25,862 nt of DNA, from positions 1 to 25,862 of the forward strand of contig JAHIPW010000086.1 of the NCBI GenBank assembly GCA_018903055.1, in the 5' to 3' direction. Position 1 is the first letter of the stretch. Every line of letters begins with the position of its first letter. The stretch is from a bacterium (GTDB lineage: Bacteria; UBP18; UBA7526). The notes beneath the pieces were generated by a model. The model was not told the DNA's origin and made no database searches. It worked only from the letters and a program-made list of their open reading frames with translations. Positions 1-13,897 of this stretch are shown one piece after another. The position numbers and the translations under genes were made by a program.

Positions 1-1208
1 ACCTTGTCATTTAACTTCACTACTGGGATTGACCTCGCTCCCACATGCTGGGAAAGAGGAATTTTGACGAGATTCGTCCGATATTCTCTCTTCTCCAGAG
101 GAGCATCTACATTATACTCTTCTATCCCGATTCTTGAGATAATCCGCTCTGTGGGAACCCGGCGATACTCTATCATGGGATGGGCTTCCTCTGGCACCCC
201 TTTATGGGGATTCTTAACCTTGGCCTCTGTTAATTCCTTCTTAATCTCCTGATTTACCCTCAAAGGTGATAGACCAAAGGGGCAGGCATATAGATTACAT
301 AGGCCGCATTCTGAGCAGAGAAAAGCAGCAGTAATGTCATTCAGCTCCTTCCTCATCTCATACCCCACATGCCTCATTATCTTATGGGGTTTCAGAGAAT
401 GGCCGATTAAGTACCTGGGACAGAGCTCAGTGCAGTCAGTACACTGCATACAGAGCATAGTTCTGCGTAGGATTTTTCTCATCTCCAAGGTCTTGTTCAT
501 AATGACCTGATGGTCTTTGGGTAGAACAATCAATCCCGTGGTGGTCTTCATAACTGGGGAATCCAGATCCTCGATAAGTTTCCCCATCATGGGCCCACCA
601 TCCAAGATAGAAAAATCATTTATCAGGGGTTCAGCTAATCTTATTACCTCTCCCACACTCATCCCCACCGGAACCTTCACTGACTTCGGTTCCTTCACTG
701 CCCCGGATATTGTAAGATACCTATGAGTGACCGGTCTTCCTTCCATGGCATCTGTAATATTGATGAGGGTTCCTACATTATCTACTACTACTCCCACATC
801 AAGAGGAATCCCTCCTTCAGGGACGATCCTTTTTAATACCTCATAGACCAGGATCTGTTCATCCCCTGCAGGATAGAAATCGGCGAGGATAAATAACTGG
901 ATCCTGGATCCTGGATCCTTGATCCTGGCCTGTAGGGCTTCAAGGGCGGGTTTGTATTTTTCTTTGAGGGCAATGAATCCCTTCTTAGCACCGGTAGCCC
1001 CCATCACCAGTTCCAAACCCTTGATCACTTTATTCGCTTGAGAAGCCATTAATTGCTGATCGATGCGTAGGAGGGGCTCACACTCCGCACCATTGGCAAT
1101 GACATACTCTACCTTGGCCTCTAACTTCACGTGGGTGGGAAAGCCCGCTCCCCCTGCTCCCACCACTCCCGCATTCTTTACTTTATCAATAATTTCTTTT
1201 TTATTCAT
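1..1208 (-). CDS. pduS: PduS/RnfC-family BMC-associated flavin/Fe-S oxidoreductase; C-terminus beyond the left window edge
   Basis: Absent from the ORF track because its stop is outside the window. Hand translation from ATG at 1208 gives MNKKEIIDKVKNAGVVGAGGAGFPTHVKL...NGAECEPLL...FYPAGDEQ, plus two ferredoxin-type motifs (CMQCTDCTELCP, CSECGLCNLYACP). It lies next to BMC genes. Confidence 0.9.
   Translation of the reverse strand, partial: MNKKEIIDKVKNAGVVGAGGAGFPTHVKLEAKVEYVIANGAECEPLLRIDQQLMASQANKVIKGLELVMGATGAKKGFIALKEKYKPALEALQARIKDPGSRIQLFILADFYPAGDEQILVYEVLKRIVPEGGIPLDVGVVVDNVGTLINITDAMEGRPVTHRYLTISGAVKEPKSVKVPVGMSVGEVIRLAEPLINDFSILDGGPMMGKLIEDLDSPVMKTTTGLIVLPKDHQVIMNKTLEMRKILRRTMLCMQCTDCTELCPRYLIGHSLKPHKIMRHVGYEMRKELNDITAAFLCSECGLCNLYACPFGLSPLRVNQEIKKELTEAKVKNPHKGVPEEAHPMIEYRRVPTERIISRIGIEEYNVDAPLEKREYRTNLVKIPLSQHVGARSIPVVKLNDK
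897..928. repeat. Heptamer tandem CTGGATC inside pduS
   Basis: CTGGATC three times exactly, then CTTGATC and a partial CTGG. Confidence 0.9.
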
Positions 1209-1249
1209 CCTTACTTTCTCAAGGGTTAGTAGGGGGAATAGGAATGATA

Positions 1250-1410
1250 ACGGTTACTACGTTCCGCAAATGCGGAATTGTTACTACCGGTTACTACGCT
1301 ACGCTGTTACTAACAGTTACTTTTATACTAATTTGGTAACCATTAGTAACCGTTTAGTAACCATTAGTAACTGCTAGTAACTTTTCCTGTTACCCTTGCC
1401 ACCCGTGTCA
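1250..1410. repeat. Mirror heptamer array GTTACTA/TAGTAAC with an embedded hairpin
   Basis: GTTACTA-like run at ~1252-1321, reverse-complement TAGTAAC run at ~1335-1381, hairpin TTCCGCA-aa-TGCGGAA at 1262-1277. Confidence 0.9.
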
Positions 1411-1412
1411 TT

Positions 1413-2843
1413 TTAGGCTATGCGGAAGTAGTCTACTAAGACGCATCTTAATGGTCGAGTAAAGGTACTGGCCTTAGTCAAACCTTCCCCAGTAGGGGTG
1501 GCGATGCTCATGGTGGCATATCCCTCTCCCTCATAGCCCAACCCGGCATAGGAGGGAGCGTTCTTGACGAAGATGGAGACCTGGGCGGTTTTGGCCATCT
1601 TGGTCAGATTGGCCACATTCAAAGAATGCATGATGGCGGTATGCTTATTTCCCTGTTCCACTTCTACAGCAAAACTTATTGCCTCATTAACATCCTTTAC
1701 TCTGACAAAGGGAATGACGGGCATGAGCTGCTCTGTCCAGATATAGGAATGGTTCCTATCTACTTCACAGAATAAGAGCCTCACACTCTCTGGTACCTTT
1801 ATTCCAATCTTGGAAGCGATTAAAGTGGCATCCTTACCAATATACTCCCTACTCACTTTGGGCTCTTTTCCTGGCCCGCCTGGCTCCAGTATGACCGCCT
1901 TGGTTAATTTTTCAAACTCTTCCTTCTTTAATTCATAAGTGCGAGGATCTTTGCGCAATAGTTCTAATAGTCTATCGGCAATGGCCTCAACGGCAATGAT
2001 CTCCTTTTCTGCAGTACATAAGACACCATTATCAAAACTGGCTCCCTTTATGATGGAGTCGCAGGCATGTTCTAAATCTGAAGTTTCATCCACCACTACT
2101 GGTGGGTTTCCCGGTCCAGCAGCAATTACCTTCTTCCCGCAAGCCATGGCTGCTTTTACTACCGCCGGTCCTCCAGTAACCAAAATGAGCTTTATCTTGG
2201 GATGCCTGAATAATGTCTGGGCCTCTTCAATGGAGGGCTTGGCAGCAGTAGTCATTAGATTTGCTGGGCCACCGGCTTTTATGATTGCCTCATTCAATAT
2301 TTGAATGGATTTTAAAGATACCTTCTTCGCCGCTGGATGGGGAGCAAAGACCACGCTATTCCCGGCAGCGATGATGGAGATGCTATTATTTATTATGGTA
2401 GAGGAAGGGTTGGTGGAGGGAACCACAGCACCGATTACCCCAAAGGGGGCCATCTCCACTAAGGTTAAACCGTGGTCCCCGGTATAGGCTATGGGGTGTA
2501 GATCCTCTACCCCGGGTGTCTTCTGGGCAGCTAAGAGATTCTTCTGGACCTTATCCTCCCATCTTCCCATTCCCGTCTCTTCCCAGGCCAACTTAGCTAA
2601 ACTCTCCGCCTCCCTGATTGAGGCCTCCCTCATGGCCTCGATATACTTACTCCTCTTTTCCAGACTCTCCCGAAAGAGTTCCCTCTGGGCAATCCGTGCT
2701 GCTTCAATGGCTTCTTCCACATTGGGAAAGACTCCCAGGTCTCCCGCGCCTGCTTTTACTTCAGGAAGTTCGGCCTCCTTCTTCGTCATTCTCTCCACTA
2801 TTTCCTTGACAACTTCCTTTATTTTCTCTGGACTAATCTCCAT
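1413..2843 (-). CDS. CoA-acylating aldehyde dehydrogenase, PduP/EutE family, with N-terminal encapsulation peptide
   Basis: Motifs PFGVIGAVVPSTNP, VTGGPAVV, AGPGNPPVVVDET, SFDNGVLCTAEKE (catalytic Cys), EQLMPVIP and PTGEG. Start moved from 2870 to ATG 2843, which has GAGG 6 nt upstream and is followed by the amphipathic helix PEKIKEVVKEIVERM. Confidence 0.93.
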   Translation of the reverse strand: MEISPEKIKEVVKEIVERMTKKEAELPEVKAGAGDLGVFPNVEEAIEAARIAQRELFRESLEKRSKYIEAMREASIREAESLAKLAWEETGMGRWEDKVQKNLLAAQKTPGVEDLHPIAYTGDHGLTLVEMAPFGVIGAVVPSTNPSSTIINNSISIIAAGNSVVFAPHPAAKKVSLKSIQILNEAIIKAGGPANLMTTAAKPSIEEAQTLFRHPKIKLILVTGGPAVVKAAMACGKKVIAAGPGNPPVVVDETSDLEHACDSIIKGASFDNGVLCTAEKEIIAVEAIADRLLELLRKDPRTYELKKEEFEKLTKAVILEPGGPGKEPKVSREYIGKDATLIASKIGIKVPESVRLLFCEVDRNHSYIWTEQLMPVIPFVRVKDVNEAISFAVEVEQGNKHTAIMHSLNVANLTKMAKTAQVSIFVKNAPSYAGLGYEGEGYATMSIATPTGEGLTKASTFTRPLRCVLVDYFRIA

Positions 2844-2867
2844 CGTCATCCTCGCTTCGCTCCGATG

Positions 2868-2948
2868 CACGGATTAGCACTGATAATAATACAGATTAGC
2901 ACGGATTTAATCTGTGCTCATCCGTATGAAATCCGTGATTATCCGTGT
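2868..2948. repeat. Mirror heptamer array CACGGAT/ATCCGTG
   Basis: CACGGAT/ACAGATT units followed by ATCCGTG units. The same family occurs at 11840-12130 and 16274-16375. Confidence 0.85.
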
Positions 2949-3239
2949 CTAAGACTTTCTGAATAAAACCTTTCCTTCGGCCTCGATGGTATCCACAATG
3001 GCCATAATTACGGCATCCGTGGGAGTATCCTTGGTCCTTATTGTCTGTCGAGCCGAGGAGCCTTTGGCGATCAAGACTACCTCTCCAATTCCCGCTCCCA
3101 TAGCATCGATAGCCACCAGAGGAGATCCCTCTTCTTTTCCTTCCATGCTTATGGGCTGGACCGCCAATAATTTGCAACCTTCTATCTTCTCATCCTTTAT
3201 AGTAGCCACAACGGTACCAATCACCTTAGCAAATATCAT
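2949..3239 (-). CDS. eutN: BMC pentameric vertex protein (EutN/CcmL family)
   Basis: MIFAKVIGTVVATIK...KLLAVQP...VAIDAMGAGIGEVVLIAKGSSAR...DAVIMAIVD; 96 aa; strong RBS AAGGAGG. Confidence 0.95.
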   Translation of the reverse strand: MIFAKVIGTVVATIKDEKIEGCKLLAVQPISMEGKEEGSPLVAIDAMGAGIGEVVLIAKGSSARQTIRTKDTPTDAVIMAIVDTIEAEGKVLFRKS

Positions 3240-3320
3240 CTGTCTCCTCCTTATAGATTAGAGGTTTACAGTAACCATTTTACAGTTGACAGTAGAACAC
3301 TGTTCGCTGGTTACTGGTTA

Positions 3321-4526
3321 CTACTTTGTTTTCCTGATTACATCATAGGTATCTCGGGCAATGACCAGTTCCTCGTTGGTTGGAATGCAATAGACCTTGA
3401 CCTTTGAATTGAGAGCGCTTATCTCTCCCTCCTTCCTTATGGTCTTCTCATTTTTTTCCCTATTAATGATCACCCCTAAAAATTCCAATCCGGCACAACT
3501 CAAGGCACGAATTCTGGGGACATTCTCCCCAATCCCGGCAGTGAAGACGATGGCATTTACTCCTCCCATGGCTCCGGCATAGGAAGCGATATACTTCCTT
3601 ATGTGATAGGTGAATATTTCTATGGCCAATCTCGCTCGATCATTCCCCTTCTTCTCCTCCTCCAGGATGTCGTACATATCATTACTCACTCCGGATAGTC
3701 CCTGGAGGCCGGAATGAAAATTGAGCATGGTATTTATCTCATTTGCCGATAATCCCTCATTGGCCATGATATATAAGACGATGGCGGGATCGATGTCTCC
3801 GCACCTGGTTCCCATAACCAAGCCCTCCAGGGGGGTAAAGCCCATGGAGGTATCGATGGATACCCCACCTTTTACCGCAGCAATACTTGCTCCATTCCCT
3901 AAGTGACAGGTGATGACCTTTAAGTCTGTCAAGGGCTTATCCATAAGATGGGCTACCCTCTGGGAGACATAGAGGTGAGAAGTACCATGAAAGCCATATC
4001 TTCTAATTCCATATTTGCGATACTGCATATAGGGCAATCCATAGATGTAGGCATGTCTGGGCATGGTCTGATGAAAGGCGGTGTCGAAGACCGCTACCTG
4101 GGGAATCTTTGAAAGGAGTTCTTCACAGGCTATGATCCCCCTCAGGTTGTGAGGATTATGTAGGGGAGCAAGTTCTATACAGTCCTTAATATCCTCCTTC
4201 ACCTCTTCTGTAATTCGCATAGAGGCGGCGAACTTCTCCCCCCCATGAACCACCCGATGGCCGACGGCAGCAATCTCTTTCTTGTCTTTAATGACCCCGC
4301 TTTTGGGATGGAGAAGAGCATCCAGGGCCAACTTTATCGCCCCCCTGTGATCCAAAATCTCTGCTGCTATCTTTACCGGCTTCTTCTTCCCCATCTGATG
4401 GGTAAGGATGGCTCCGCTCATCCCGATACGTTCCACAATCCCCTTGGCCAGGACAGACTCCTTTTCAATCTCAATCAGTTCATACTTCACAGAGGAACTT
4501 CCACAGTTCAAAACCAGAATATTCAT
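3321..4526 (-). CDS. ackA: Acetate/propionate kinase
   Basis: Motifs NCGSSSVKY, GHRVVHGG, APLHNP, FDTAFH, YGFHGTSH, CHLGNGAS, DTSMGFTPLEG, FTAGIGEN and PTNEEL. Confidence 0.97.
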   Translation of the reverse strand: MNILVLNCGSSSVKYELIEIEKESVLAKGIVERIGMSGAILTHQMGKKKPVKIAAEILDHRGAIKLALDALLHPKSGVIKDKKEIAAVGHRVVHGGEKFAASMRITEEVKEDIKDCIELAPLHNPHNLRGIIACEELLSKIPQVAVFDTAFHQTMPRHAYIYGLPYMQYRKYGIRRYGFHGTSHLYVSQRVAHLMDKPLTDLKVITCHLGNGASIAAVKGGVSIDTSMGFTPLEGLVMGTRCGDIDPAIVLYIMANEGLSANEINTMLNFHSGLQGLSGVSNDMYDILEEEKKGNDRARLAIEIFTYHIRKYIASYAGAMGGVNAIVFTAGIGENVPRIRALSCAGLEFLGVIINREKNEKTIRKEGEISALNSKVKVYCIPTNEELVIARDTYDVIRKTK

Positions 4527-4569
4527 CCCACCCTTCCTTTCATGAGATTTCTGAAAAAGTCAGCAATCT

Positions 4570-4655
4570 TTGATTACGGTGATTAAACTAAAGATTACAA
4601 CGATGAAATTGTCATCGAGTAATCACTGTCATCATTCTTTTGAATCACTGTAATC
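4570..4655. repeat. Mirror array GATTAC/GTAATC
   Basis: GATTAC/GATTAA units, a CGATGA-aattg-TCATCG hairpin, then GTAATC/GAATCAC units. Confidence 0.7.
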
Positions 4656-5967
4656 AGAGGTCTCTGGGCATTTTTCCAGAGACCTCTTTCATATTTTTAA
4701 TGAGAGCGTCACCATACTCAGAACACTTTAATTCTGTTGCCCCCTTCAGCTGTCTGGCCAGGTCATAGGTGACAAGTTTCTTTGATATGGTCCTATTTAT
4801 CGATTCCTTAATAAGCTGAGCAACCTCATCCCACCCCAGATACTCTAACATCATTACGCCGGATAGGATTAAAGCAGTGGGGTTTACTTTATCCAGACCG
4901 GCATATTTTGGTGCCGCACCGTGAGTTGCCTCAAAGAGAGCAATTTCATCACCTATATTTGCCCCGGGAGCCATCCCCAGACCACCCACCTGAGCAGCGC
5001 AGGCATCGGAAAAGTAATCGCCATTTAGATTGGGAAGAGCAAGGACATGGTACTCACTGGGTCTTAAGAGTATCTGCTGGAACATCTGGTCGGCTATTCT
5101 ATCCTTAATTATAATCCTTCCCCCGGGATCTCCGGATGGTCTCCCACCCCGCAGTTCCGCATAATGCCCTTCCTTCTGCACCGGGGTTACCCCATCTTCT
5201 GCCTTCACCTGATCCCAGAGCTCATCTTCGGTAATAACTCTATCCCGGAACTCATCTAGGGCAACTTCATACCCCCAGTTTTTAAAGGCCCCTTCAGTAA
5301 ATTTCATTATGTTTCCCTTGTGGACTAAAGTTAAGGATTTTCTGTTGTTAGCTACCACGTATTCCAGGGCTTTTCTCACCAGCCTTTTGGTGGCAAACTC
5401 GCTTATGGGTTTGACTCCAATCCCGGAATCACTCCTAATACTCACTTTCATCTCTTCTTTAAGGAAGTCAATAACTTTTTTTGCCTCAGCCGTTCCCATC
5501 TCCCACTCAATCCCGGCATAGACATCTTCGGTATTCTCCCTGAAGATAATTACATCCAATTCTTCAGGATTTTTGACTGGTGTGGGAACACCTTTATAGT
5601 GACGGGAGGGTCTCACGCAGGCATATAAATCGAGTCTCTGTCTCATACTAACATTTAAACTCCGGTATCCTCCTCCCACCGGTGTAATGAGCGGGCCTTT
5701 AATGGCAACTCTATATTCCCTTATGGCATCATAGGTCTCTTCGGGAAGGGGGTTATGGTATAATTCAATGGCCTTTTCGCCGGCAAATATCTCCAGCCAC
5801 TTGATTTCTCTCTTCCCGTTATAGGAAATCTCTACTGCTGAATCCCAGACCTTCTTTGAAGTTCTCATGATATCTGGTCCTGTCCCGTCTCCCTCAATAT
5901 AGGGAATTACTGGAGAATCCGGGACCTTTATTCTTCCATTCTCAAATTTTATCTTCTCCCCTTCCAT
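4654..5967 (-). CDS. icd: Isocitrate dehydrogenase, homodimeric E. coli-type, probably NADP-dependent
   Basis: Motifs [58 protein letters not shown] and FEATHG-APKY (Lys-Tyr pair typical of NADP forms). The start overlaps the citrate synthase stop (TAATG). Confidence 0.95.
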
Positions 5968-7166
5968 TACCTCTTCTCCATGGGAATGTATTCTTGTTTT
6001 AAGGGACCATAGTACTCTGCTCTGGGGCGAAATATTCTGTTTTCCGGCATATACTCTAAGACCCTCGCTGTCCAGCCCGCTACTCTTGATACGGCAAAGA
6101 GCGGGGTAAAGAGCGAGGTCTCCAGCCCCAGTGCTTTGTAAACAATGCCGGAATAAAAATCAACATTGGGAAATATTCCTTTTTTCTCACCCAACTCTCT
6201 TATCTCCACTTCCTCTAATCTTTCAGCAATTGCCAAAAGATTTTTAATCTCTTCAGTGGTAGCTACTCTGTGACAATACTCTTTAAATATTCTTGCCCGG
6301 GGGTCATGGGCATGGTAAATGCGATGTCCAAAGCCCGGAATTTTATGGTGTAGTTTCCTCTCTCTTCCATACCATTCCTCCACATTGGAAGGTGTGCCAA
6401 TCTCCTGTAACATCTTTATCACCCTCTCATTTGCCCCACCATGCAAGGGACCTTTAAGGGAACCAATCCCTCCAGCAATGGTGGCATAAAAATCGGAAAG
6501 TGAGGCGTGAATGACCATGCAGGTAAAGGTTGAACCACTCATTCCGTGGTCGGCATGGAGGATTAGCGCCATATCAATGGCTTTAGAAATTTCTTCATCC
6601 ACGCCCCTCAACGAGGGGCGGGATTCATCTACTTCGCCAGTAATCATATAGACAAGATTTTCAGCATGGGAAAGGTCTTCCCGGGGTTCGATAACCTCTT
6701 TCCCTTTCTTTATCCTGCTTATGGCCGCAGTTACCGTGGCAATTTTTGATATAATTCTTATGGCTACTTCCTTTTCACTCTCTAAAGTAACCTTCTGGGA
6801 CTCCTTATCATATCCCGCCAGGGCCGCGACAGCACTCATTAACAGATTCATAGAATGGGTATCCTTGGGAAGAATTTTTATCATCTCAACTATGCCTTGG
6901 GGTATGGATCTGCTTACTTTTAATTTTTCTTTAAATCCATTAAGTTCGTCCCTTTTGGGGAGTTTCCCAAATAAAAGAAGGTAAGCGGTCTCTTCAAATG
7001 ATGAGTATTTCGCCAGGTCCTCAATGCTAATACCTCGGTAACAGAGCCTACCCTCTTTTCCGTTAACATAGCCAATCTGAGTGTTATTGACTATGGCCCC
7101 TTCCAGGCCTCTTCCAATTTCACATTTAATGGGAAATTCTTTTTTGCCAACAAAATCTCTTTCCAT
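5967..7166 (-). CDS. gltA: Citrate synthase / 2-methylcitrate synthase family
   Basis: Motifs [52 protein letters not shown] and [10 protein letters not shown]. Start placed at ATG 7166, which overlaps the mdh stop (TAATG), rather than 7271. Confidence 0.92.
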
Positions 7167-8167
7167 TATTTTTTCCTGCCTCCTCGGCAGGTCGCCGATG
7201 AGGCGACCTTTCCTTTTCCTCCCATAAGATGAGCACTGGCTTCCAGTGCTATTTGTATTTTTTCCTTGCATATTTTGGCGCTCTCTTTAAGTGATGCCAA
7301 CTCAGGGGCTTTAAGTTTCAGTTCGATTATCTCCTCCACACCGCTACTCCCTAACTTTGCCGGAACCCCCATAAAAATGTCTTTCAGTCCATACTCTCCG
7401 GATAGATAACAAGAAGAGGGAAGTATTCTCTTCTTATCTTTTATGATTGACTCTGCCATATTATATACTGCTTGTGCCGGAGCGTAGTAGGCGCTTCCCT
7501 TATTTAAGAGGTTTACTATTTCGTCTCCCCCTTTTCTGGTTCTTTCGATTAATGAATCTATGGTCTCTTTATCCAGTAGTTCGGTTATGGGAATACCACT
7601 TACCGTGGTATATCTGGGCAGAGGAACCATGGAATCTCCATGTCCCCCGAGGACCAGGGCAGCTATATCTTCAGTGGAAACATCCAATTCTTCGGCAATA
7701 AAGTAACTGAACCGAGCGGAATCTAAGACTCCGGCCTGTCCCACAACTTTTTTCTCGCTGAAACTGGTAACTTTCCAGAGTAAATAACTCATGACATCCA
7801 GAGGGTTGGTAACCATAATGACTATTGAATCAGGCGAATATTTTTTTATATTCTTTGCTACTTCGGTAATAATAGAGGCATTTTTTTTGAGTAGGTCCTC
7901 TCTGGTCATTCCCGGTTTTCTAGGAAGGCCGGCAGTTACCACAACTATATCTGAATGACTTATCTCTTCATATGAAGATGTTCCTGCTATATGAGAGTCA
8001 AATTTTGCGGCGGCGGAACTTTCCGCTATGTCAAGGCCCTTACCTTTAGGTATACCGGGAAGAATATCCAGTAATACCACATCCGCCAATTCTTCTCTTG
8101 CTATAAGAATAGCGATGGTCTCTCCTACATGACCGGCGCCTATTATAGAAACTTTTGCCCTTCTCAT
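7166..8167 (-). CDS. mdh: NAD-dependent malate dehydrogenase (LDH-like)
   Basis: GAGHVG Rossmann motif, TAGLPRKPGMTREDL (substrate Arg diagnostic of MDH over LDH), VTNPLD, GVLDSAR and LGGHGD. Start at ATG 8167 overlaps the fumarase beta stop (ATGA). Confidence 0.95.
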   Translation of the reverse strand: MRRAKVSIIGAGHVGETIAILIAREELADVVLLDILPGIPKGKGLDIAESSAAAKFDSHIAGTSSYEEISHSDIVVVTAGLPRKPGMTREDLLKKNASIITEVAKNIKKYSPDSIVIMVTNPLDVMSYLLWKVTSFSEKKVVGQAGVLDSARFSYFIAEELDVSTEDIAALVLGGHGDSMVPLPRYTTVSGIPITELLDKETIDSLIERTRKGGDEIVNLLNKGSAYYAPAQAVYNMAESIIKDKKRILPSSCYLSGEYGLKDIFMGVPAKLGSSGVEEIIELKLKAPELASLKESAKICKEKIQIALEASAHLMGGKGKVASSATCRGGRKK

Positions 8168-8721
8168 TTTTCTTTCCTTTTGAATTTCTTCCAACCTATC
8201 CGGTAGAGGTCTTTACCTCTGGTATCGTTTATTACTACTAAAGGCATCTCTTCAACTTCCAGTCTTCTTATTGCTTCGGGCCCCAGATCCTTATAGGCAA
8301 TTATCTGGGAAGCTTTTATATATTGGGATATAAGGGCTCCAGCACCGCCCAAGGCAGCAAAATATAGGGACTTATTCTTTACTATGGAATCTATTACTCT
8401 CCTGGAACGTGGTCCTTTCCCTATCATTCCTTTCAGTCCTCTTTCCAAAAGTAGAGGAGTGAAAGGGTCCATGCGACAAGAGGTGGTCGGTCCGGCCGAT
8501 CCGATAACCATACCTGGTTTTGCCGGGGAGGGACCGCAATAATAGATTACACTTCCTTCAATGTCAAAGGGGAGTCTTTTCCCTTTCCGGATACTGTCAA
8601 CCAACCTTTTGTGAGCGGAGTCCCTGGCGATATAAATTATTCCAGACAACAGAATCTTATCTCCGATCTTTAATTTGACTATATCAGAATTTTTTAGGGG
8701 TGTGGTTAGTCTATATAACAT
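8164..8721 (-). CDS. Class I Fe-S fumarate hydratase / tartrate dehydratase, beta subunit
   Basis: Motifs LSGIIYIARDSAHKRL, YYCGP, AGPTTSCRMD, MIGKG, ALGGAGAL and DLGPEA. The mdh context favours fumarase. Confidence 0.92.
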   Translation of the reverse strand: MLYRLTTPLKNSDIVKLKIGDKILLSGIIYIARDSAHKRLVDSIRKGKRLPFDIEGSVIYYCGPSPAKPGMVIGSAGPTTSCRMDPFTPLLLERGLKGMIGKGPRSRRVIDSIVKNKSLYFAALGGAGALISQYIKASQIIAYKDLGPEAIRRLEVEEMPLVVINDTRGKDLYRIGWKKFKRKEK

Positions 8722-9559
8722 AACTCTTATGCCTGTGGGCGTGACACTCCATATTTACTGCAACCGGGAGGGTGGCCATATGGCGGGGGTATTCTTCAAT
8801 AGATAAATCCAGTGCAGTAACTCTGCCCCCAAGCCCGGCAGGACCTATCCCCAGATTATTAATTTCCTTCAACCACTTTCTTTCAAGTTCGGCAATCTTT
8901 TTATCCGGATTTCGCTGTCCGATATCTCTCAAAAGGGCCTTTTTTGCCAGATAGGCAACCTTTTCAAAGGATCCCCCGACTCCCACTCCTACAATTACTG
9001 GAGGGCAGGGGTTGGCCGAAGCAAGTTCTACTGTTTCTACTACAAATTTTTTAACCCCTTCAACTCCGTCGGCAGGTTTTAACATTTTAAGCCGAGACAT
9101 GTTTTCGCCTCCCCCGCCCTTTGGTACTACGGTTATCTTTAACCTATCCCCCTCAACTATCTGCTCATGAATTATCGCCGGGGTATTATCCTCACTATTT
9201 TTGGGGTTAGTCAGAGGATTTTTAATCATAGACTTTCTTAGGAAACCCGCAGTATAACCTTCACTTACTCCTTTAACTATGGCTTCTTCCAGTGACCCCC
9301 CCACAAACTTTACCTCCTGACCTATTTCTAGGAATACTAAAGCCAGGCCGGTATCCTGACAGAGGGGCATGGAATTTCTTGAAGCAATATGGGCATTTTG
9401 GATAAGCTGCTTTAATACCTCTTTTCCCTGCTGGGATTCTTCTATATCTATTGCTTTCTTAAAGGCTCTTATTACATCTCTGGGAAGCTCGGTGTTGGCC
9501 CTAATACATAAATCCCTTACAACTTCGGTTACCTTTTTAACGTTGATTTCTCGGCTCAC
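8711..9559 (-). CDS. Class I Fe-S fumarate hydratase / tartrate dehydratase, alpha subunit
   Basis: Motifs PLCQDTG, GFLRKS, DNTPA, PKGGG-EN, NPCPP, GIGPAGLGG and CHAHRH. Start placed at GTG 9559 (SREINVKKV); the 32-codon extension to 9655 is repeat DNA. Confidence 0.9.
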   Translation of the reverse strand: MSREINVKKVTEVVRDLCIRANTELPRDVIRAFKKAIDIEESQQGKEVLKQLIQNAHIASRNSMPLCQDTGLALVFLEIGQEVKFVGGSLEEAIVKGVSEGYTAGFLRKSMIKNPLTNPKNSEDNTPAIIHEQIVEGDRLKITVVPKGGGGENMSRLKMLKPADGVEGVKKFVVETVELASANPCPPVIVGVGVGGSFEKVAYLAKKALLRDIGQRNPDKKIAELERKWLKEINNLGIGPAGLGGRVTALDLSIEEYPRHMATLPVAVNMECHAHRHKSYVI

Positions 9560-9564
9560 CCTTT

Positions 9565-9660
9565 GCCCCCGTTGGCTTGTCGCTCGTCGCCCGCTTCGCT
9601 TTATCGCTAATCGTTTCTTAATAATATGCGATCTGCGACCTGCGACATGCGACATGCCAG
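9565..9660. repeat. Mirror array TCGC/GCGA
   Basis: TCGCT-like units, then GCGATCT GCGACCT GCGACAT GCGACAT (7-bp period). Confidence 0.8.
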
Positions 9661-9665
9661 ATATC

Positions 9666-10325
9666 TTAGCTTTTTATAATTTCTATCAAATCTCCTTGAG
9701 ATAGTTCAGCGGCATTGGCCTCATCGATGTCTATATGGAAATCTAATCTATGGGTTGGTCCGGATCTTATCATGACGTTATCGAATATTAATGCTCTCTT
9801 GCCTGGTACCTGCACCCTTACAATATCACCATCCTTTACTCCGAAACTTCTCGCTTCATCTGGAGACATGTGGATATGGCGTTGGGCAATAATTACCCCT
9901 TCTTTTAAGTCAATCTCTCCCTTGGGACCGATAATCTTTACTCCGCTCGAGCCCTTAACATTCCCCGAAATTCTCACGGGAGGTTTGATTCCCAAGGTAT
10001 AACTATCTGTTCTGGAGATCTCCACCTGGGTCTCTTTTCTTACCGGGCCCAGGATGCGCACCTTATCCATTCTTCCTTTTGGTCCCACTAAGATAATTAC
10101 CTCATTGGCGGCAAACTGTCCTGGCTGAGAAAGGTCTCTTAACTTCGTTAATCTCGCCCCCTTACTAAATAAGGTCTTTATGTCTTGTATGGTAAGGTGG
10201 AGGTGTCTATTGGAAAGACCAACTGGAATCTTGTCCGAGACTTTTAATCCACCACTTAATTTGCCTAAGACTTCCTTTACAATGGAACGGACTAATTTTT
10301 TATCATACACGTCTTTTTCTCTCAC
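9666..10325 (-). CDS. pduL: PduL-type phosphotransacylase with N-terminal encapsulation peptide
   Basis: Motifs IPVGLSNRHLHL, LSQPGQFAANE, RILGPVRKETQVEISRTD, GVIIAQRHIHMSP and HIDIDEANAA. N-terminal helix KKLVRSIVKEVLGKL. The start codon (GTG) is uncertain. Confidence 0.95.
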   Translation of the reverse strand: MREKDVYDKKLVRSIVKEVLGKLSGGLKVSDKIPVGLSNRHLHLTIQDIKTLFSKGARLTKLRDLSQPGQFAANEVIILVGPKGRMDKVRILGPVRKETQVEISRTDSYTLGIKPPVRISGNVKGSSGVKIIGPKGEIDLKEGVIIAQRHIHMSPDEARSFGVKDGDIVRVQVPGKRALIFDNVMIRSGPTHRLDFHIDIDEANAAELSQGDLIEIIKS

Positions 10326-10394
10326 TAAATCGTTAACTGTTGAGCGGTGCGCTTTACTTGCCCCGCTGATGAATAATTATTATTCAATTTGCCC

Positions 10395-10520
10395 GTCCCG
10401 ACATCCGTCGGGACTGTTTACCGTTTACCGTCTTTTACCGCCTCTCGTTTTCACTCGAGACTGGGCGATCCTGAATGAAATGAAGGACCGTAAACCGTAC
10501 ACCGTGAACCGTAAACCCCT
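10395..10520. repeat. ACCGT-based heptamer array with a hairpin
   Basis: TTTACCG and ACCGTAA/ACCGTGA units, plus GTCCCGAC-atcc-GTCGGGAC. The same family occurs at 19100-19265. Confidence 0.8.
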
Positions 10521-10522
10521 TT

Positions 10523-11287
10523 CTATCTTTTTTGTCTTTCATATTTAATGATCTGGGCAAAGGATCTGGCATCCAAGCTCGCCCCTCCTACTAAGGCACC
10601 ATCGATGTCCTTCTCCCTCATTAAATCAGAGATGTTCTCTGGCTTGACGCTTCCTCCGTACTGAATCCTAATCTTAGAAGCAGTAACCTCATCATAGAGC
10701 TCGCTTAAGAGTCTTCTAACGAAAGAATGTACCTCTTGCGCTTGATCCGGCGTGGCGGTCTTTCCCGTTCCAATGGCCCACACCGGTTCATAGGCAATGA
10801 CCATCTTCAATACCTCTTCCTTAGATAGACTCTCCAGTCCCCGAGTAATATGCTCCCTCACCACCCCTTCGGTCACTCTCCGCTCCCTCTCCTCCAACCT
10901 CTCCCCCACACACATTATAGGAGTGAGACCGAATTTTAGAGCGGCTTTTACTTTTCTATTCACTGATTGGTTTGCTTCACCGAAGAGATGCCTCCTCTCT
11001 GAATGGCCAATGATGACATACTGACAGCCCACATCAGTGAGCATTCCAGGTGAAACCTCTCCCGTATAGGCCCCCTTCTCCTCCCAGTAGATATCCTGGG
11101 CACCGAGAAAGATATTCGCTCCCCGAATGGCTTTACCCACCGCAAAGAGAGAAGTAAAGGGTGGGCAGGCCACGATGTCCACATCGTTGACTTCAGCGAC
11201 CTCGGACTTCAATTTAGTCACTAAATCCAGGGACTGGTCGATGGTCTCATTCATCTTCCAGTTCCCGGCAATTATTGGACGACGCAT
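10523..11287 (-). CDS. tpiA: Triosephosphate isomerase
   Basis: Motifs AGNWKMN, GAYTGEVS, IGHSERR, AYEPVWAIGTG, YGGSV and LVGGASL. Confidence 0.98.
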   Translation of the reverse strand: MRRPIIAGNWKMNETIDQSLDLVTKLKSEVAEVNDVDIVACPPFTSLFAVGKAIRGANIFLGAQDIYWEEKGAYTGEVSPGMLTDVGCQYVIIGHSERRHLFGEANQSVNRKVKAALKFGLTPIMCVGERLEERERRVTEGVVREHITRGLESLSKEEVLKMVIAYEPVWAIGTGKTATPDQAQEVHSFVRRLLSELYDEVTASKIRIQYGGSVKPENISDLMREKDIDGALVGGASLDARSFAQIIKYERQKR

Positions 11288-11361
11288 GTACTCTCTCTTT
11301 TACGTTATACGTTGAAGGGTTGCGCTGCTCGTGTCATCTTGAGCAAATTGTAGCGAAATTT

Positions 11362-11525
11362 GAAAACAGTTGACAGAAATTTGAAAACTATAGGGAAATC
11401 TGAAATCAGCCCGCCCCGCTTCGCGGAGCGAGGCCGGGGAAAACTGTTTTCCGTTTTCCGTTCTCCCTACTGATTTCTGTTTTCTAATAACTGATTTCCT
11501 ACTCTCCTACTCTCCTACTCTTCTT
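11362..11525. repeat. GAAAACWG/CWGTTTTC mirror element, with an inverted second copy at 25510-25630
   Basis: 11362-11402 matches the reverse complement of 25589-25629 at 36/41 nt. CTCCTAC-type heptamers follow it. Confidence 0.85.
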
Positions 11526-11530
11526 CTTTC

Positions 11531-11821
11531 CTACTTACCAGGTGTGATAGGCATTACCCCTTCCAAATCCGGATGGGGTCTGGGAATGACGTGAACGCTT
11601 ACCAGTTCCCCTACCTTCTGAGCTGCCGCAGCACCAGCATCGCAGGCTGCCTTGCAGGCAGCAACGTCACCCCTCACTAAGGTAGTGACATAGCCTGCTC
11701 CGATCTTCTCCCAGCCTACCAGTCTTACCTTGGCAGACTTGATCATGGCATCCGTAGCCTCGATAAGGGTTACCAGTCCCTTGGTCTCAATCATCCCCAA
11801 GGCTTCTTTTGTTTCTTCCAT
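11531..11821 (-). CDS. BMC hexameric shell protein (PduA/EutM-like BMC-H)
   Basis: [27 protein letters not shown]...[24 protein letters not shown]...SVHVIPRPH. Start placed at ATG 11821, behind the RBS GGAGGTG. Confidence 0.95.
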
Positions 11822-11909
11822 TTTCTTCACCTCCTCTAATACACGGATAATCACAGATTCTTTACGGATGGTCACAGATGACTAAATGTAAAATAAAAAA
11901 ATTAAAGTG

Positions 11910-11973
11910 CCCTTAGAGATTGCAAGGCAATCTCAAGGACTTTAGTCCCGGAAATTCTGCAAATTTCTCGGGG
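11910..11973 (+). repeat. ~64-bp double-hairpin element, copy 1 of 3
   Basis: GAGATTGC-aag-GCAATCTC, then GAAATT-ctgca-AATTTC with CCCG/CGGG outer arms. Confidence 0.85.
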
Positions 11974-12130
11974 CAAAATGACAAATTAAAAATTAAAAAG
12001 GAATCTCCTATAGAAGAGACTTTCCTGCCCCGATATTATTTTACAATGAAAATAATTTTACATTTTGATATGTAATTTTGATTTTTGATATTTGATTTTT
12101 AAATTTAAACTAATCCGTGCTAATCCGTGT

Positions 12131-13897
12131 CTATTTACTTTCAAAGAGGCAGACCCTATTTCTTCCCTCTCTCTTGGCACGATATAAAGTCTGGTCTGCC
12201 TGACCAATCAGTACCTCCTTGCGCATCCCCTTCCTATAACCTGCCACCCCAATACTCACCGTAATCTTAACCTTCTTCTTCTTTCCTTTCAGAAAGTCAA
12301 AATCCTCTACTTTCTTTCGCAGACGCTCTGCTAAGAGATAGGCTCCCTTGGCATCCGTCTCGGGCAGAATAAGGGCAAACTCCTCTCCCCCATAGCGAGC
12401 GGCGATGTCCGCTCCCCTTATCGCCTGCTGTAAGAGATGGGCAATATTCACTAGAACCGTATCTCCTGCCGGATGGCCATAGGTATCATTAAATCTCTTG
12501 AAGTGATCGATGTCTAACATGAGCAGAGATAACGAGGTCTCATAGCGCCTGGCCTTCCTTATCTCCTGTTCCAAATAATTCTGGAAGAAAGTATGGGCAT
12601 AGAGACCGGTCAAGCCATCGTGGATCGCCTGCTCATATAACATAGCGTTCTGGATGGCTATCGCTGCATGGCTTGCCAGGGTAGACAAGAGCTCCTCATC
12701 CCTTCTAATGAACGGCTGGCGGGAAACCTTATTGGAGAGGGTAATCACTCCTACCCCCTCTCCCTTGGCCACCAGGGGAAGAGCAAGTAAAGTCTCTGTT
12801 CTATGTAATTTCTTCTCTGTCTCCAGAGGCTTATAGCGCCGGTCTCTTAAGGTATCATTAATTACCATGGACTTTTTCTTTTCAAATACTTGACCGGCAA
12901 TCCCTTCTCCTCTCTTTAGTCTCAGACGCTTCCTGGCCTCCTCACTTATCCCTATACCATAAGCGATATAGAGCCTCTTTTTCTTCTCGTGCCAGAGCAT
13001 GAGGGACCCCTTCTCCACCTGGGCCACCTCCATGAATAATTCTACGATGAGTCTCAAAAGTTCTTCCTTCTCCATGTTGGAACTTATCTTTGTAGAGAGC
13101 CTTTGGAGCATCTGAAGATCCAGAACCCTTTGGTCAAGCTCCTCCTTTGCTCTGGTTAAGAGAGTGCTCTTCTCCTCAAGCGACCTCCAGCTTCCGGAGA
13201 GCCTCTTCCCCATCTGGTTAAACACCTCTCCCAACTCTCCCACCTCATCCCGAGAGGTAATCCTCACCCTGGCTTCCAGATCTCCCCTACCGATTTTCTG
13301 AGCAGCCTGAACCAACCTATTTATCGGTCGGGTAATGCTGGCTGCCAGGAGCAAGGAGATAACAATCCCCAGAATGAGCAGGCCAATGGTTAGAAGAAAG
13401 ATATGATCTCGAATCTCAGCAATTCTTGCTTTTAAGGGGATCGAAGAGAATCCCACCCTCACCAGGCCAATCCTTCTTTTTCCCAGAAGAATGGGAACCG
13501 CAATATCGTAGCCTCCCTCTTCTGTGATCTGTAAGAGGGTAATCCTTGCTCTCTGGGCTTTGAGGCTCAAGTCGTCCCTCAGGGTCTTGCTCACCAGGCT
13601 CTTATTCGTGTGGGCCATGACCTCTCCAATATCGTTTAAAATAATGACATAATCGATATCATCACCCTTCCTGCCTATTCCCTCCACTATCTGGGTCAGG
13701 GTGATGTAATCATTGGATAGGATGGCAGTGGTGGAGGTGGTGGCCAGAGCATTGGTAATGTCCTTGGCCCTCTTGATCATCTGGTCAGTGGCCGTTCTCT
13801 CCTCCCCCTTGAGAGTGACACCAACCACTAAGGACATGATGATTACGATGATTACAATCACAAATCCGGCAATCTTTCCTGCCAGAGAAATCTTCAC
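12131..13897 (-). CDS. Membrane diguanylate cyclase (TM, extracytoplasmic sensor, TM, HAMP, GAF, GGDEF)
   Basis: Two hydrophobic segments; HAMP (ITRPINRL...RDEVGELGEVFNQM); GAF (GEGIAGQV...GVITLSNK...AAIAIQNA); GGDEF domain (HDGLTGL, DIDHFKRFNDTYGHPAGD, RYGGEEF) with intact RxxD I-site (RGAD). Confidence 0.93.
   Translation of the reverse strand: MKISLAGKIAGFVIVIIVIIMSLVVGVTLKGEERTATDQMIKRAKDITNALATTSTTAILSNDYITLTQIVEGIGRKGDDIDYVIILNDIGEVMAHTNKSLVSKTLRDDLSLKAQRARITLLQITEEGGYDIAVPILLGKRRIGLVRVGFSSIPLKARIAEIRDHIFLLTIGLLILGIVISLLLAASITRPINRLVQAAQKIGRGDLEARVRITSRDEVGELGEVFNQMGKRLSGSWRSLEEKSTLLTRAKEELDQRVLDLQMLQRLSTKISSNMEKEELLRLIVELFMEVAQVEKGSLMLWHEKKKRLYIAYGIGISEEARKRLRLKRGEGIAGQVFEKKKSMVINDTLRDRRYKPLETEKKLHRTETLLALPLVAKGEGVGVITLSNKVSRQPFIRRDEELLSTLASHAAIAIQNAMLYEQAIHDGLTGLYAHTFFQNYLEQEIRKARRYETSLSLLMLDIDHFKRFNDTYGHPAGDTVLVNIAHLLQQAIRGADIAARYGGEEFALILPETDAKGAYLLAERLRKKVEDFDFLKGKKKKVKITVSIGVAGYRKGMRKEVLIGQADQTLYRAKREGRNRVCLFESK

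Follow-up and report, generated by a model that had tools for sequence, protein, structure and literature searches.

Why should five genes of the tricarboxylic acid (TCA) cycle lie in the middle of an operon for a bacterial microcompartment (BMC)? The question is raised by contig JAHIPW010000086.1 of assembly GCA_018903055.1, the 25,862 nucleotides of which form the window analysed here. In this window the block fumA–fumB–mdh–gltA–icd, referred to below as the cassette, is placed between pduL and ackA, the genes for a phosphotransacylase and an acetate kinase. We consider it fairly probable that the cassette is a horizontally acquired TCA branch which works in the cytosol, became embedded in the operon of a sugar-phosphate utilisation (SPU) microcompartment and displaced the resident genes of its host.

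Gene order of the locus

The window is the entire contig C72 of a metagenome-assembled genome (MAG) of the UBP18 phylum from groundwater (G000; 1.09 Mb, 191 contigs, ∼85% complete), and the locus is truncated at pduS because the contig ends there. All genes of the locus are co-oriented on the minus strand. The twelve gene calls of an earlier interpretation made from the letters of this contig (the sequence-only reading) were checked using Pfam and NCBIfam profiles and all of them hold. The features, by window coordinates, are as follows.

3–1208, minus strand: pduS-like flavoprotein/Fe-S electron-transfer protein (Complex1_51K and Fer4_17; RnfC subfamily), 440 amino acids in relatives, C-terminal end cut by the contig end
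1413–2870, minus strand: CoA-acylating aldehyde dehydrogenase (AldDH), a BMC core enzyme (PRK15398, 665 bits) with an amphipathic N-terminal segment
2949–3239, minus strand: BMC-P pentamer (EutN/CcmL; PF03319, 1e-31)
3321–4526, minus strand: acetate kinase ackA (TIGR00016, 519 bits), sole copy in the assembly
4527–4653, minus strand: strain-variable icd–ackA spacer that contains a dispersed repeat and folds into strong hairpins (z = −5.6)
4654–5967, minus strand: NADP-type isocitrate dehydrogenase icd, cassette gene 5 (TIGR00183, 656 bits, above the cut-off)
5967–7166, minus strand: Si-type citrate synthase gltA, cassette gene 4 (TIGR01800, 444 bits)
7166–8167, minus strand: malate dehydrogenase mdh, cassette gene 3 (TIGR01763, 441 bits)
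8164–8721, minus strand: class I fumarase beta fumB, cassette gene 2 (PRK06842, 272 bits)
8711–9559, minus strand: class I fumarase alpha fumA, cassette gene 1, GTG start (PRK06246, 404 bits)
9560–9665, minus strand: pduL–fumA spacer with a mirror array of ∼7 nt units (TRF array 9626–9657) and a long hairpin (fold z = −3.8), strain-variable
9666–10325, minus strand: PduL phosphotransacylase (PF06130, 260 bits) with a 32-amino-acid N-terminal extension ahead of the catalytic domain
10523–11287, minus strand: triosephosphate isomerase tpiA (PF00121, 332 bits), sole copy in the assembly
11531–11821, minus strand: BMC-H shell hexamer (PF00936, 97 bits), 96 amino acids in relatives, sole BMC-domain match in the assembled genome

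As had been read from the sequence, the TCA genes overlap at all four internal junctions: by 11 bp between fumA and fumB, by 4 bp (ATGA) between fumB and mdh and by 1 bp each (TAATG) between mdh and gltA and between gltA and icd. Alignment to two related loci (L060 and L063) places the start of fumA at the GTG at 9559 and not at the ATG at 9655. Each of the five TCA genes is present in one copy in the assembly.

Distribution of the cassette

The five-gene block is truly embedded in the BMC operon and recurs in several diverged lineages. Three other loci (L060, L061 and L062) carry the same cassette at the same site, in the order tpiA–pduL–fumA–fumB–mdh–gltA–icd–ackA–BMC-P, and a fourth (L063) keeps the cassette order without mdh. 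Citrate synthase homologues at the same site in other assemblies are 92–93% identical. Compared with the window, the other cassette-bearing loci show 84–93% identity in the cassette proteins and 81–97% in the flanking proteins. Because these identities match, the cassette must have diverged together with its host and the insertion is not recent, which disposes of the recent chance insertion that the sequence-only reading had named as a possible objection. A scan of JGI (Joint Genome Institute) metagenomes with icd gave no further cassette-bearing contig, the best match being 70%.

The dispersed repeats in the two outer spacers, at which some Logan contigs break, could in principle have led an assembler or a binning step to join a foreign TCA operon to the BMC contig. 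Logan contigs from unrelated studies, however, bridge both junctions: record 11 of run X3 (5.8 kb) connects fumA to pduL, and record 16 of run X4 (6.5 kb) runs through ackA, icd and fumA. Since other assemblies share the order, including those of strains without the repeats, and independent metagenome contigs span each junction, such an artefact is excluded for practical purposes; in addition, this genome lacks the resident copies at the sites where they would be expected (see below). In runs X2 and X3 some Logan contigs contain short-sided joints, 3252>10328 and 10517>3324 (3299–3324/10517), which join the spacer lying upstream of pduL to the BMC-P or ackA-distal spacers. These were considered as rearrangements and set aside, as the repeats shared by these spacers are the best explanation; they may nevertheless reflect a strain with a rearranged or deleted pduL–ackA segment.

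The comparison set consists of six UBP18 species genomes of 0.8–1.4 Mb each, in which G005 is the second species of the genus of the window. In three of them (G009, G008 and G006, with loci L005, L006 and L007, respectively) the neighbourhood is syntenic, ackA directly follows pduL and there is no insert. The sequence-only reading had asked whether relatives would have the locus without the block and the block elsewhere. The first half is indeed seen, but what these genomes hold elsewhere are scattered non-orthologous copies and not a block. Citrate synthase (PF00285) is matched in one of the six genomes, that of the window. In an unrooted tree of 12 concatenated flanking proteins, a branch with 95/96 support separates the three loci without insert from the window, L060/L062, L063 and the locus of G007 (L008).

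Resident genes and empty sites

The genomes without insert carry their own versions of these enzymes at three unlinked sites, and none of the resident genes is orthologous to its counterpart in the cassette.

Between an Asp/Glu racemase gene and the RNase PH gene (rph), in G006, G008 and G009: resident fumA–fumB, 53–55% identical to the cassette copies
Between a deoxyhypusine-synthase-like gene (dhs) and larE, in G006 and G009: resident mdh, 55% identical to the cassette copy
Between the gene for a HacB-like small subunit and purA, in G006, G008 and G009: resident idh-like gene encoding 359 amino acids, 43% identical to the cassette icd

In the genome of the window each of the three sites is empty although its flanking genes remain, with 82–95% identity. 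On contig C186 the racemase gene (4306–5094) is followed by rph at 5096 with no fumAB between them, on C103 dhs (539–1582) is followed by larE at 1600 with no mdh, and on C101 only a repeat array separates the end of hacB at 85 from purA at 311. Two sites are readable in each of two further genomes, and all are empty: in G005 the racemase–rph site and the site ahead of purA, where nothing idh-like is found, and in G007 the dhs–larE and hacB–purA sites. The presence of an insert between pduL and ackA and the loss of the resident copies thus go together. It follows that the simplest history is a single acquisition followed by loss of the redundant residents, the reverse requiring three precise single-gene insertions. 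Absence of the cassette from the same site in the sisters and its lack of orthology to the residents are what horizontal acquisition would leave behind.

The reverse history deserves to be stated in full. The cassette could be ancestral to the family, with the sisters having lost it and gained fumAB, mdh and idh-like genes as isolated units at scattered positions. The tree of the locus has no root, four events are needed under either scenario, and G009 and the G006/G008 pair lie on one side of a single branch, all of which this history accommodates. It nevertheless demands three precise and independent insertions at sites common to two genera, compared with one insertion and three deletions. 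The parts of the cassette are also heterogeneous: in a related scaffold with a larger insert (L195) gltA and icd are 86–90% identical to those of the window and fumA and mdh just 62%, which points to acquisition at the junction. We consider an ancestral cassette to be improbable.

The pattern resembles xenologous displacement after horizontal transfer, in that a foreign isofunctional set is present and the residents are cleanly missing from syntenic sites. It differs from the usual case in that one cassette replaces several unlinked genes and in that the landing junction is variable and holds other TCA modules in related lineages. It would represent an unusually clean case of multi-gene xenologous displacement with operon consolidation in a reduced genome.

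Cargo or cytosolic enzymes

The N-termini of PduL and AldDH each consist of an amphipathic helix and a linker and resemble encapsulation peptides. On inspection of the sequences no such extension is found on FumA, FumB, citrate synthase or isocitrate dehydrogenase, which match their family profiles over the full length. The C-terminus of Mdh carries a short basic tail that extends 12–23 amino acids beyond the resident enzyme, and the length and sequence of this tail differ between the window and L060. Because the TCA enzymes lack extensions of this kind, our reading places them in the cytosol, probably as a module expressed together with the operon and not as microcompartment cargo.

The sequence-only reading had considered a new BMC subtype or an accessory module. 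One form of a new subtype would have the TCA enzymes as cargo, and with them part of the TCA cycle, inside the shell. The position of the genes in the middle of a shell and core operon and the basic tail of Mdh are in line with this idea. The tail is not conserved, however, mdh is dispensable in L063, and an amphipathic helix with linker is lacking in the other four enzymes although PduL and AldDH of the same operon possess one. The neighbouring AckA is also without an encapsulation peptide, and the same BMC operates in the sisters, which have no cassette. Encapsulation of the TCA enzymes is therefore very improbable.

Type of microcompartment

The compartment itself is of an ordinary type. 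SPU loci are defined by the presence of DeoC and RpiB together with AldDH, a phosphotransacylase (PTAC), PduS and triosephosphate isomerase (TPI) (PMC8217296, PMC11585597). The locus is an SPU-type (deoxyribose-5-phosphate/sugar-phosphate utilisation) microcompartment operon, and the window contains its proximal part. The AldDH, PTAC, PduS and TPI set is present as in SPU1 and SPU4. In relatives the operon continues past pduS with BMC-T, a small open reading frame, RpiB, BMC-P, an SH3 protein, a further BMC-P and DeoC with an N-terminal extension (295 amino acids in L007). The distal end of the operon in the genome of the window lies on contig C109, with a third BMC-P, DeoC (deoxyribose-phosphate aldolase, DERA; a 92.5% identical orthologue) and serine hydroxymethyltransferase. 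Shell proteins of every kind are thus accounted for: BMC-H and one BMC-P in the window, the third BMC-P on C109, and BMC-T and the second BMC-P in relatives. A DeoC-type aldolase (pfam01791) is found in the L007 locus and, as its orthologue, adjoining BMC-P on C109. RpiB (pfam02502) is present in the relatives' loci; in the genome of the window there is just an RpiB-like gene of 54% identity on contig C41, and the stretch between C72 and C109 in which RpiB is expected is unassembled. On C41, a 2.7 kb contig, this gene adjoins a PduS/RnfC-like gene of 37% identity (57–1685). The pair could represent a paralogous cluster or the missing portion of the locus in diverged form, or else C41 may have been binned wrongly. 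SPU loci are reportedly treated in the work of Axen from 2014.

The likeness to PTAC- and TPI-containing SPU loci (SPU1/SPU4-like) extends to a single BMC-H, one BMC-T(s), three BMC-P, DERA and, in the loci of relatives, RpiB with N-terminal extensions, AldDH, PduL, a PduS homologue and TPI, as well as a nucleoside-related neighbourhood (purine nucleoside phosphorylase and ABC importer). Unlike the catalogued SPU loci, this operon contains ackA and the five TCA genes. Searches by term, covering the main text of PMC8217296 and PMC11585597 and the available supplements to the 2021 catalogue, did not find citrate synthase, isocitrate dehydrogenase, fumarase or malate dehydrogenase, and a full-text literature search for TCA genes in such loci returned nothing. 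This agrees with the statement of the sequence-only reading that no described BMC class is known to carry such a block. Its further proposal of a new BMC subtype is not supported, as the BMC is of the ordinary SPU type and there is no sign that the TCA enzymes belong to the organelle. The finding is an undescribed variant of the SPU locus and not a new kind of organelle. The sequence-only reading did not notice the SPU assignment, the loss of the resident genes to displacement or the variation of the junction among lineages.

Metabolic context

An aconitase is missing from the cassette. The window supplies citrate synthase and an NADP-type isocitrate dehydrogenase, and a candidate HacA/HacB-type dehydratase is encoded elsewhere in the genome: the HacA-like large subunit on contig C84 (88% identical to that of G006) and the HacB-like small subunit on C101 are both retained. 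The pair is the best candidate for the aconitase because hacB adjoins the idh-like gene in G006. Five of the six UBP18 genomes, including that of the window, encode glutamate dehydrogenase, which was not found in G005 (53% complete). The branch from acetyl-CoA to 2-oxoglutarate and glutamate that had been proposed from the sequence is hence plausible, with the HacA/HacB-type dehydratase as a putative aconitase. In the 85%-complete assembly of the window we found neither fumarate reductase nor succinyl-CoA synthetase nor kor genes of the type seen in the large insert described below, and we therefore regard its TCA genes as a branched, incomplete set.

Three other candidates were tried and rejected. 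A fused LeuCD-like gene on contig C122 was considered for the role of the aconitase. The closest sequences to it, with identities from 92% to 65%, are LeuCD-like proteins from contigs labelled Patescibacteria, on which an Iso_dh gene comes next. Its own contig is 2.2 kb long, so that its provenance and function are uncertain; it may be a contaminant or a leucine-pathway enzyme. A NifV-type homocitrate-synthase-like gene, possibly a Re-citrate synthase, lies directly upstream of hacA in G006 (contig C35; L185:3584–4741) and G008 (C8:18642–19415) and was considered as the resident displaced by gltA. The site is empty in G009, G005 and G007, and its absence from G009 in particular means that it is not a family-wide resident. 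A fumarate reductase that could act as NADH sink was not found, as the sole full-length FAD_binding_2 protein (on C132) is the L-aspartate oxidase NadB (746 bits). NadB was found only in genomes with empty resident sites (G000, C132:1137–2699; G005, C43; G007, C100) and was not found in G006, G008 or G009.

Proposed history and function

In the history that we favour, the compact and translationally coupled set fumA–fumB–mdh–gltA–icd would have entered the pduL–ackA junction in the ancestor from which a single branch of the family descends. Its genes would be xenologues of the scattered fumAB, mdh and idh-like genes of the family, which would afterwards have been deleted from their conserved sites. 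The cassette would contribute a Si-citrate synthase, an enzyme found in no other of the six UBP18 genomes, and it could do without an aconitase because the resident HacA/HacB-type dehydratase is kept. The TCA enzymes would act in the cytosol and be transcribed along with the BMC genes. Nucleoside-derived acetaldehyde would be converted to acetyl-CoA, one part of which would enter the branched, incomplete TCA pathway while the rest would yield acetate and ATP. In the branch, oxaloacetate and acetyl-CoA would be converted to 2-oxoglutarate and, by glutamate dehydrogenase, to glutamate, and fumarate and malate would be formed from oxaloacetate or feed into it.

A number of points weigh against this scheme. 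The unrooted locus tree leaves room for a cassette lost in the sisters, and in GTDB G007 shares its genus with two genomes without insert, which requires exchange of the locus or repeated change. No integrase or transposase flanking the cassette was found in a Pfam and NCBIfam scan of the window, and the GC content of the cassette (0.43–0.45) is only slightly lower than that of its flanks (0.46–0.49). The genomes compared are MAGs of 53–93% completeness. Acetyl-CoA formed within a shell would have to reach a citrate synthase in the cytosol. The source of oxaloacetate and the aconitase activity of HacAB are putative. The hairpins in the outer spacers of the window strain (z = −5.6 and −3.8) could attenuate or segment the transcript, and the runs that contain the window sequence are all DNA or unlabelled contig sets, none being recorded as RNA.

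Parallels exist for parts of the arrangement. As in the Bacillus-type partial TCA operons citZ–icd–mdh, the genes for citrate synthase, isocitrate dehydrogenase and malate dehydrogenase are adjacent and co-oriented; unlike in these operons, the order is fumA–fumB–mdh–gltA–icd, the junctions overlap and the set is embedded in a BMC operon. Clusters of gltA–icd–mdh or icd–mdh–fumAB occur on many metagenomic contigs, L192 has a gltA–icd pair of 72% and 80% identity, and no exact five-gene match outside UBP18 was found among the metagenomic contigs. In the Pdu metabolosome of Salmonella, the acyl-CoA made by the BMC aldehyde dehydrogenase is split between PduL with a kinase, which yields ATP, and a cytosolic (methyl)citrate synthase route, the prp genes of which form a regulon separate from Pdu. 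Here, in contrast, the citrate synthase route lies within the BMC operon itself.

BMC loci serve to predict the function of a metabolosome and its exported products, and this SPU operon encodes the step after acetyl-CoA. If the scheme is correct, it would provide a natural case of partitioning the output of an organelle between ATP formation and biosynthesis, and a first way into the metabolism of UBP18, a phylum that has hardly been described.

The variable pduL–ackA junction

Depending on the lineage, the junction between pduL and ackA contains nothing, five genes, four genes (L063) or a large insert of the type sucCD–kor–…–hydrogenase. In G007 (L008:6784–8976) the genes next to pduL are sucC, sucD and one for a small ferredoxin, at which the contig ends; the remainder of this locus was not found in the G007 assembly. 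L195, a 26.5 kb scaffold with four 100-N gaps, encodes a SucD that is 90% identical to the G007 type. The region read (1–13661) starts with tpiA (91.5%)–pduL (88%)–sucC–sucD–korD–korA–korB–korG and continues with fumA (63%)–mdh (62.5%)–gltA (86%)–icd (90.5%), the small and large subunits of a [NiFe] hydrogenase and a Fer4-CCG protein, the hydrogenase and Hdr-like genes forming a module; the fumA and mdh of L195 resemble neither those of the window nor the resident copies. A more distant contig with the label Elusimicrobiota (L064:82–11251) has the order gltA (73%)–Mvh-type hydrogenase–Hdr-like–FlpD–HycI–FrdB-like–FrdA-like–ackA (52%), possibly the distal part of an insert of the large type. 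Acetyl-CoA and TCA genes of mixed origin have thus gathered at this junction.

That different lineages hold different inserts here suggests another explanation, in which the cassette just hitch-hikes, neutrally or for convenience, at a junction that tolerates insertions within the most strongly expressed operon of the cell, and performs housekeeping TCA functions with no link to the BMC. The replaced housekeeping genes are indeed unlinked to the BMC in the sisters, and the TCA enzymes carry no encapsulation peptides. Every insert seen at the junction, however, is related to acetyl-CoA or the TCA cycle and not random, the cassette sits exactly between two enzymes that dispose of acetyl-CoA, and the arrangement is stable in lineages that have diverged to 81–93% protein identity. 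On balance we regard the hitch-hiker as unlikely, though as the most serious competitor of an acquired cytosolic branch tied to the SPU operon.

More tentatively, the junction could be a growth point at which central carbon metabolism is written into the microcompartment operon, with the five-gene cassette as its minimal form; we think this possible and rather doubtful at present. If it were true, and if the large insert were one transcription unit, a near-complete TCA cycle, oxidative or reversed and possibly H2-linked, would be genetically slaved to a metabolosome. This would be a new way to couple the acetyl-CoA and acetyl-phosphate output of an organelle to core metabolism in very small genomes. 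In any case, a variable junction with larger TCA and hydrogenase inserts is a place to look for more modules.

Spacers and transcription signals

Arrays of ∼7 nt units are located at 897–928, 1332–1371, 3307–3322, 9626–9657, 10416–10517 and 11446–11535. They occupy most of the spacers and fold as long hairpins, and one of them sits in frame within pduS. Similar elements are found on dozens of other contigs of the same genome and in the genomes of relatives, and they are absent or shorter in other strains. The sequence-only reading had contrasted the overlapping TCA genes with repeat-filled spacers between the BMC genes. The latter are filled as described, but both outer spacers of the cassette (4527–4653 and 9560–9665) carry such arrays too.

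Repeat copies from the icd–ackA spacer occur in the genomes of relatives. L060 has no such spacer: its icd overlaps ackA by ATGA, and its ackA overlaps BMC-P in the same way. In the X4 contig the spacer is shorter by 80 nt. Instead of the repeat array, the contigs from X3 and X4 have 28–30 nt between pduL and fumA, and the corresponding gap in L060 is 16 nt (pduL end 7624, fumA start 7641) with a G-rich ribosome-binding site. The bulky spacers are an overlay specific to the strain, and the gene overlaps in relatives suggest that the cassette would be co-transcribed with the BMC genes.

Promoter-like matches number 24 in the window compared with 22.5 in shuffled sequences, and terminator-like matches 25 compared with 16.6 (standard deviation 4.2), about two standard deviations higher. 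The promoter and terminator scan placed no terminator-like site on the minus strand at either border of the cassette. An Rfam search of the window gave no match.

Neighbouring genes

The runs that contain the window sequence (X1–X8) are groundwater and mine-drainage metagenomes. The nearest PduL loci (81–83% identity) belong to ‘bacterium UBP18_UBA7526’ and to MAGs named CSMAG_*.

Upstream of the BMC-H gene lie genes for an sCache-HAMP-GAF-GGDEF protein, a Clp1-type P-loop protein, a kinase and a xylose-isomerase-like TIM barrel; the same region also encodes a purine/methylthioadenosine (MTA)-type phosphorylase, a BMP-type ABC importer and a DHH protein. The first of these, a sensor diguanylate cyclase (12131–13897), is a 588-amino-acid sCache-HAMP-GAF-GGDEF protein in most loci. 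In L008 (3633–4682) and L063 (1604–2659) the diguanylate cyclase is a GAF-GGDEF protein of 350 amino acids with only 59–63% identity.

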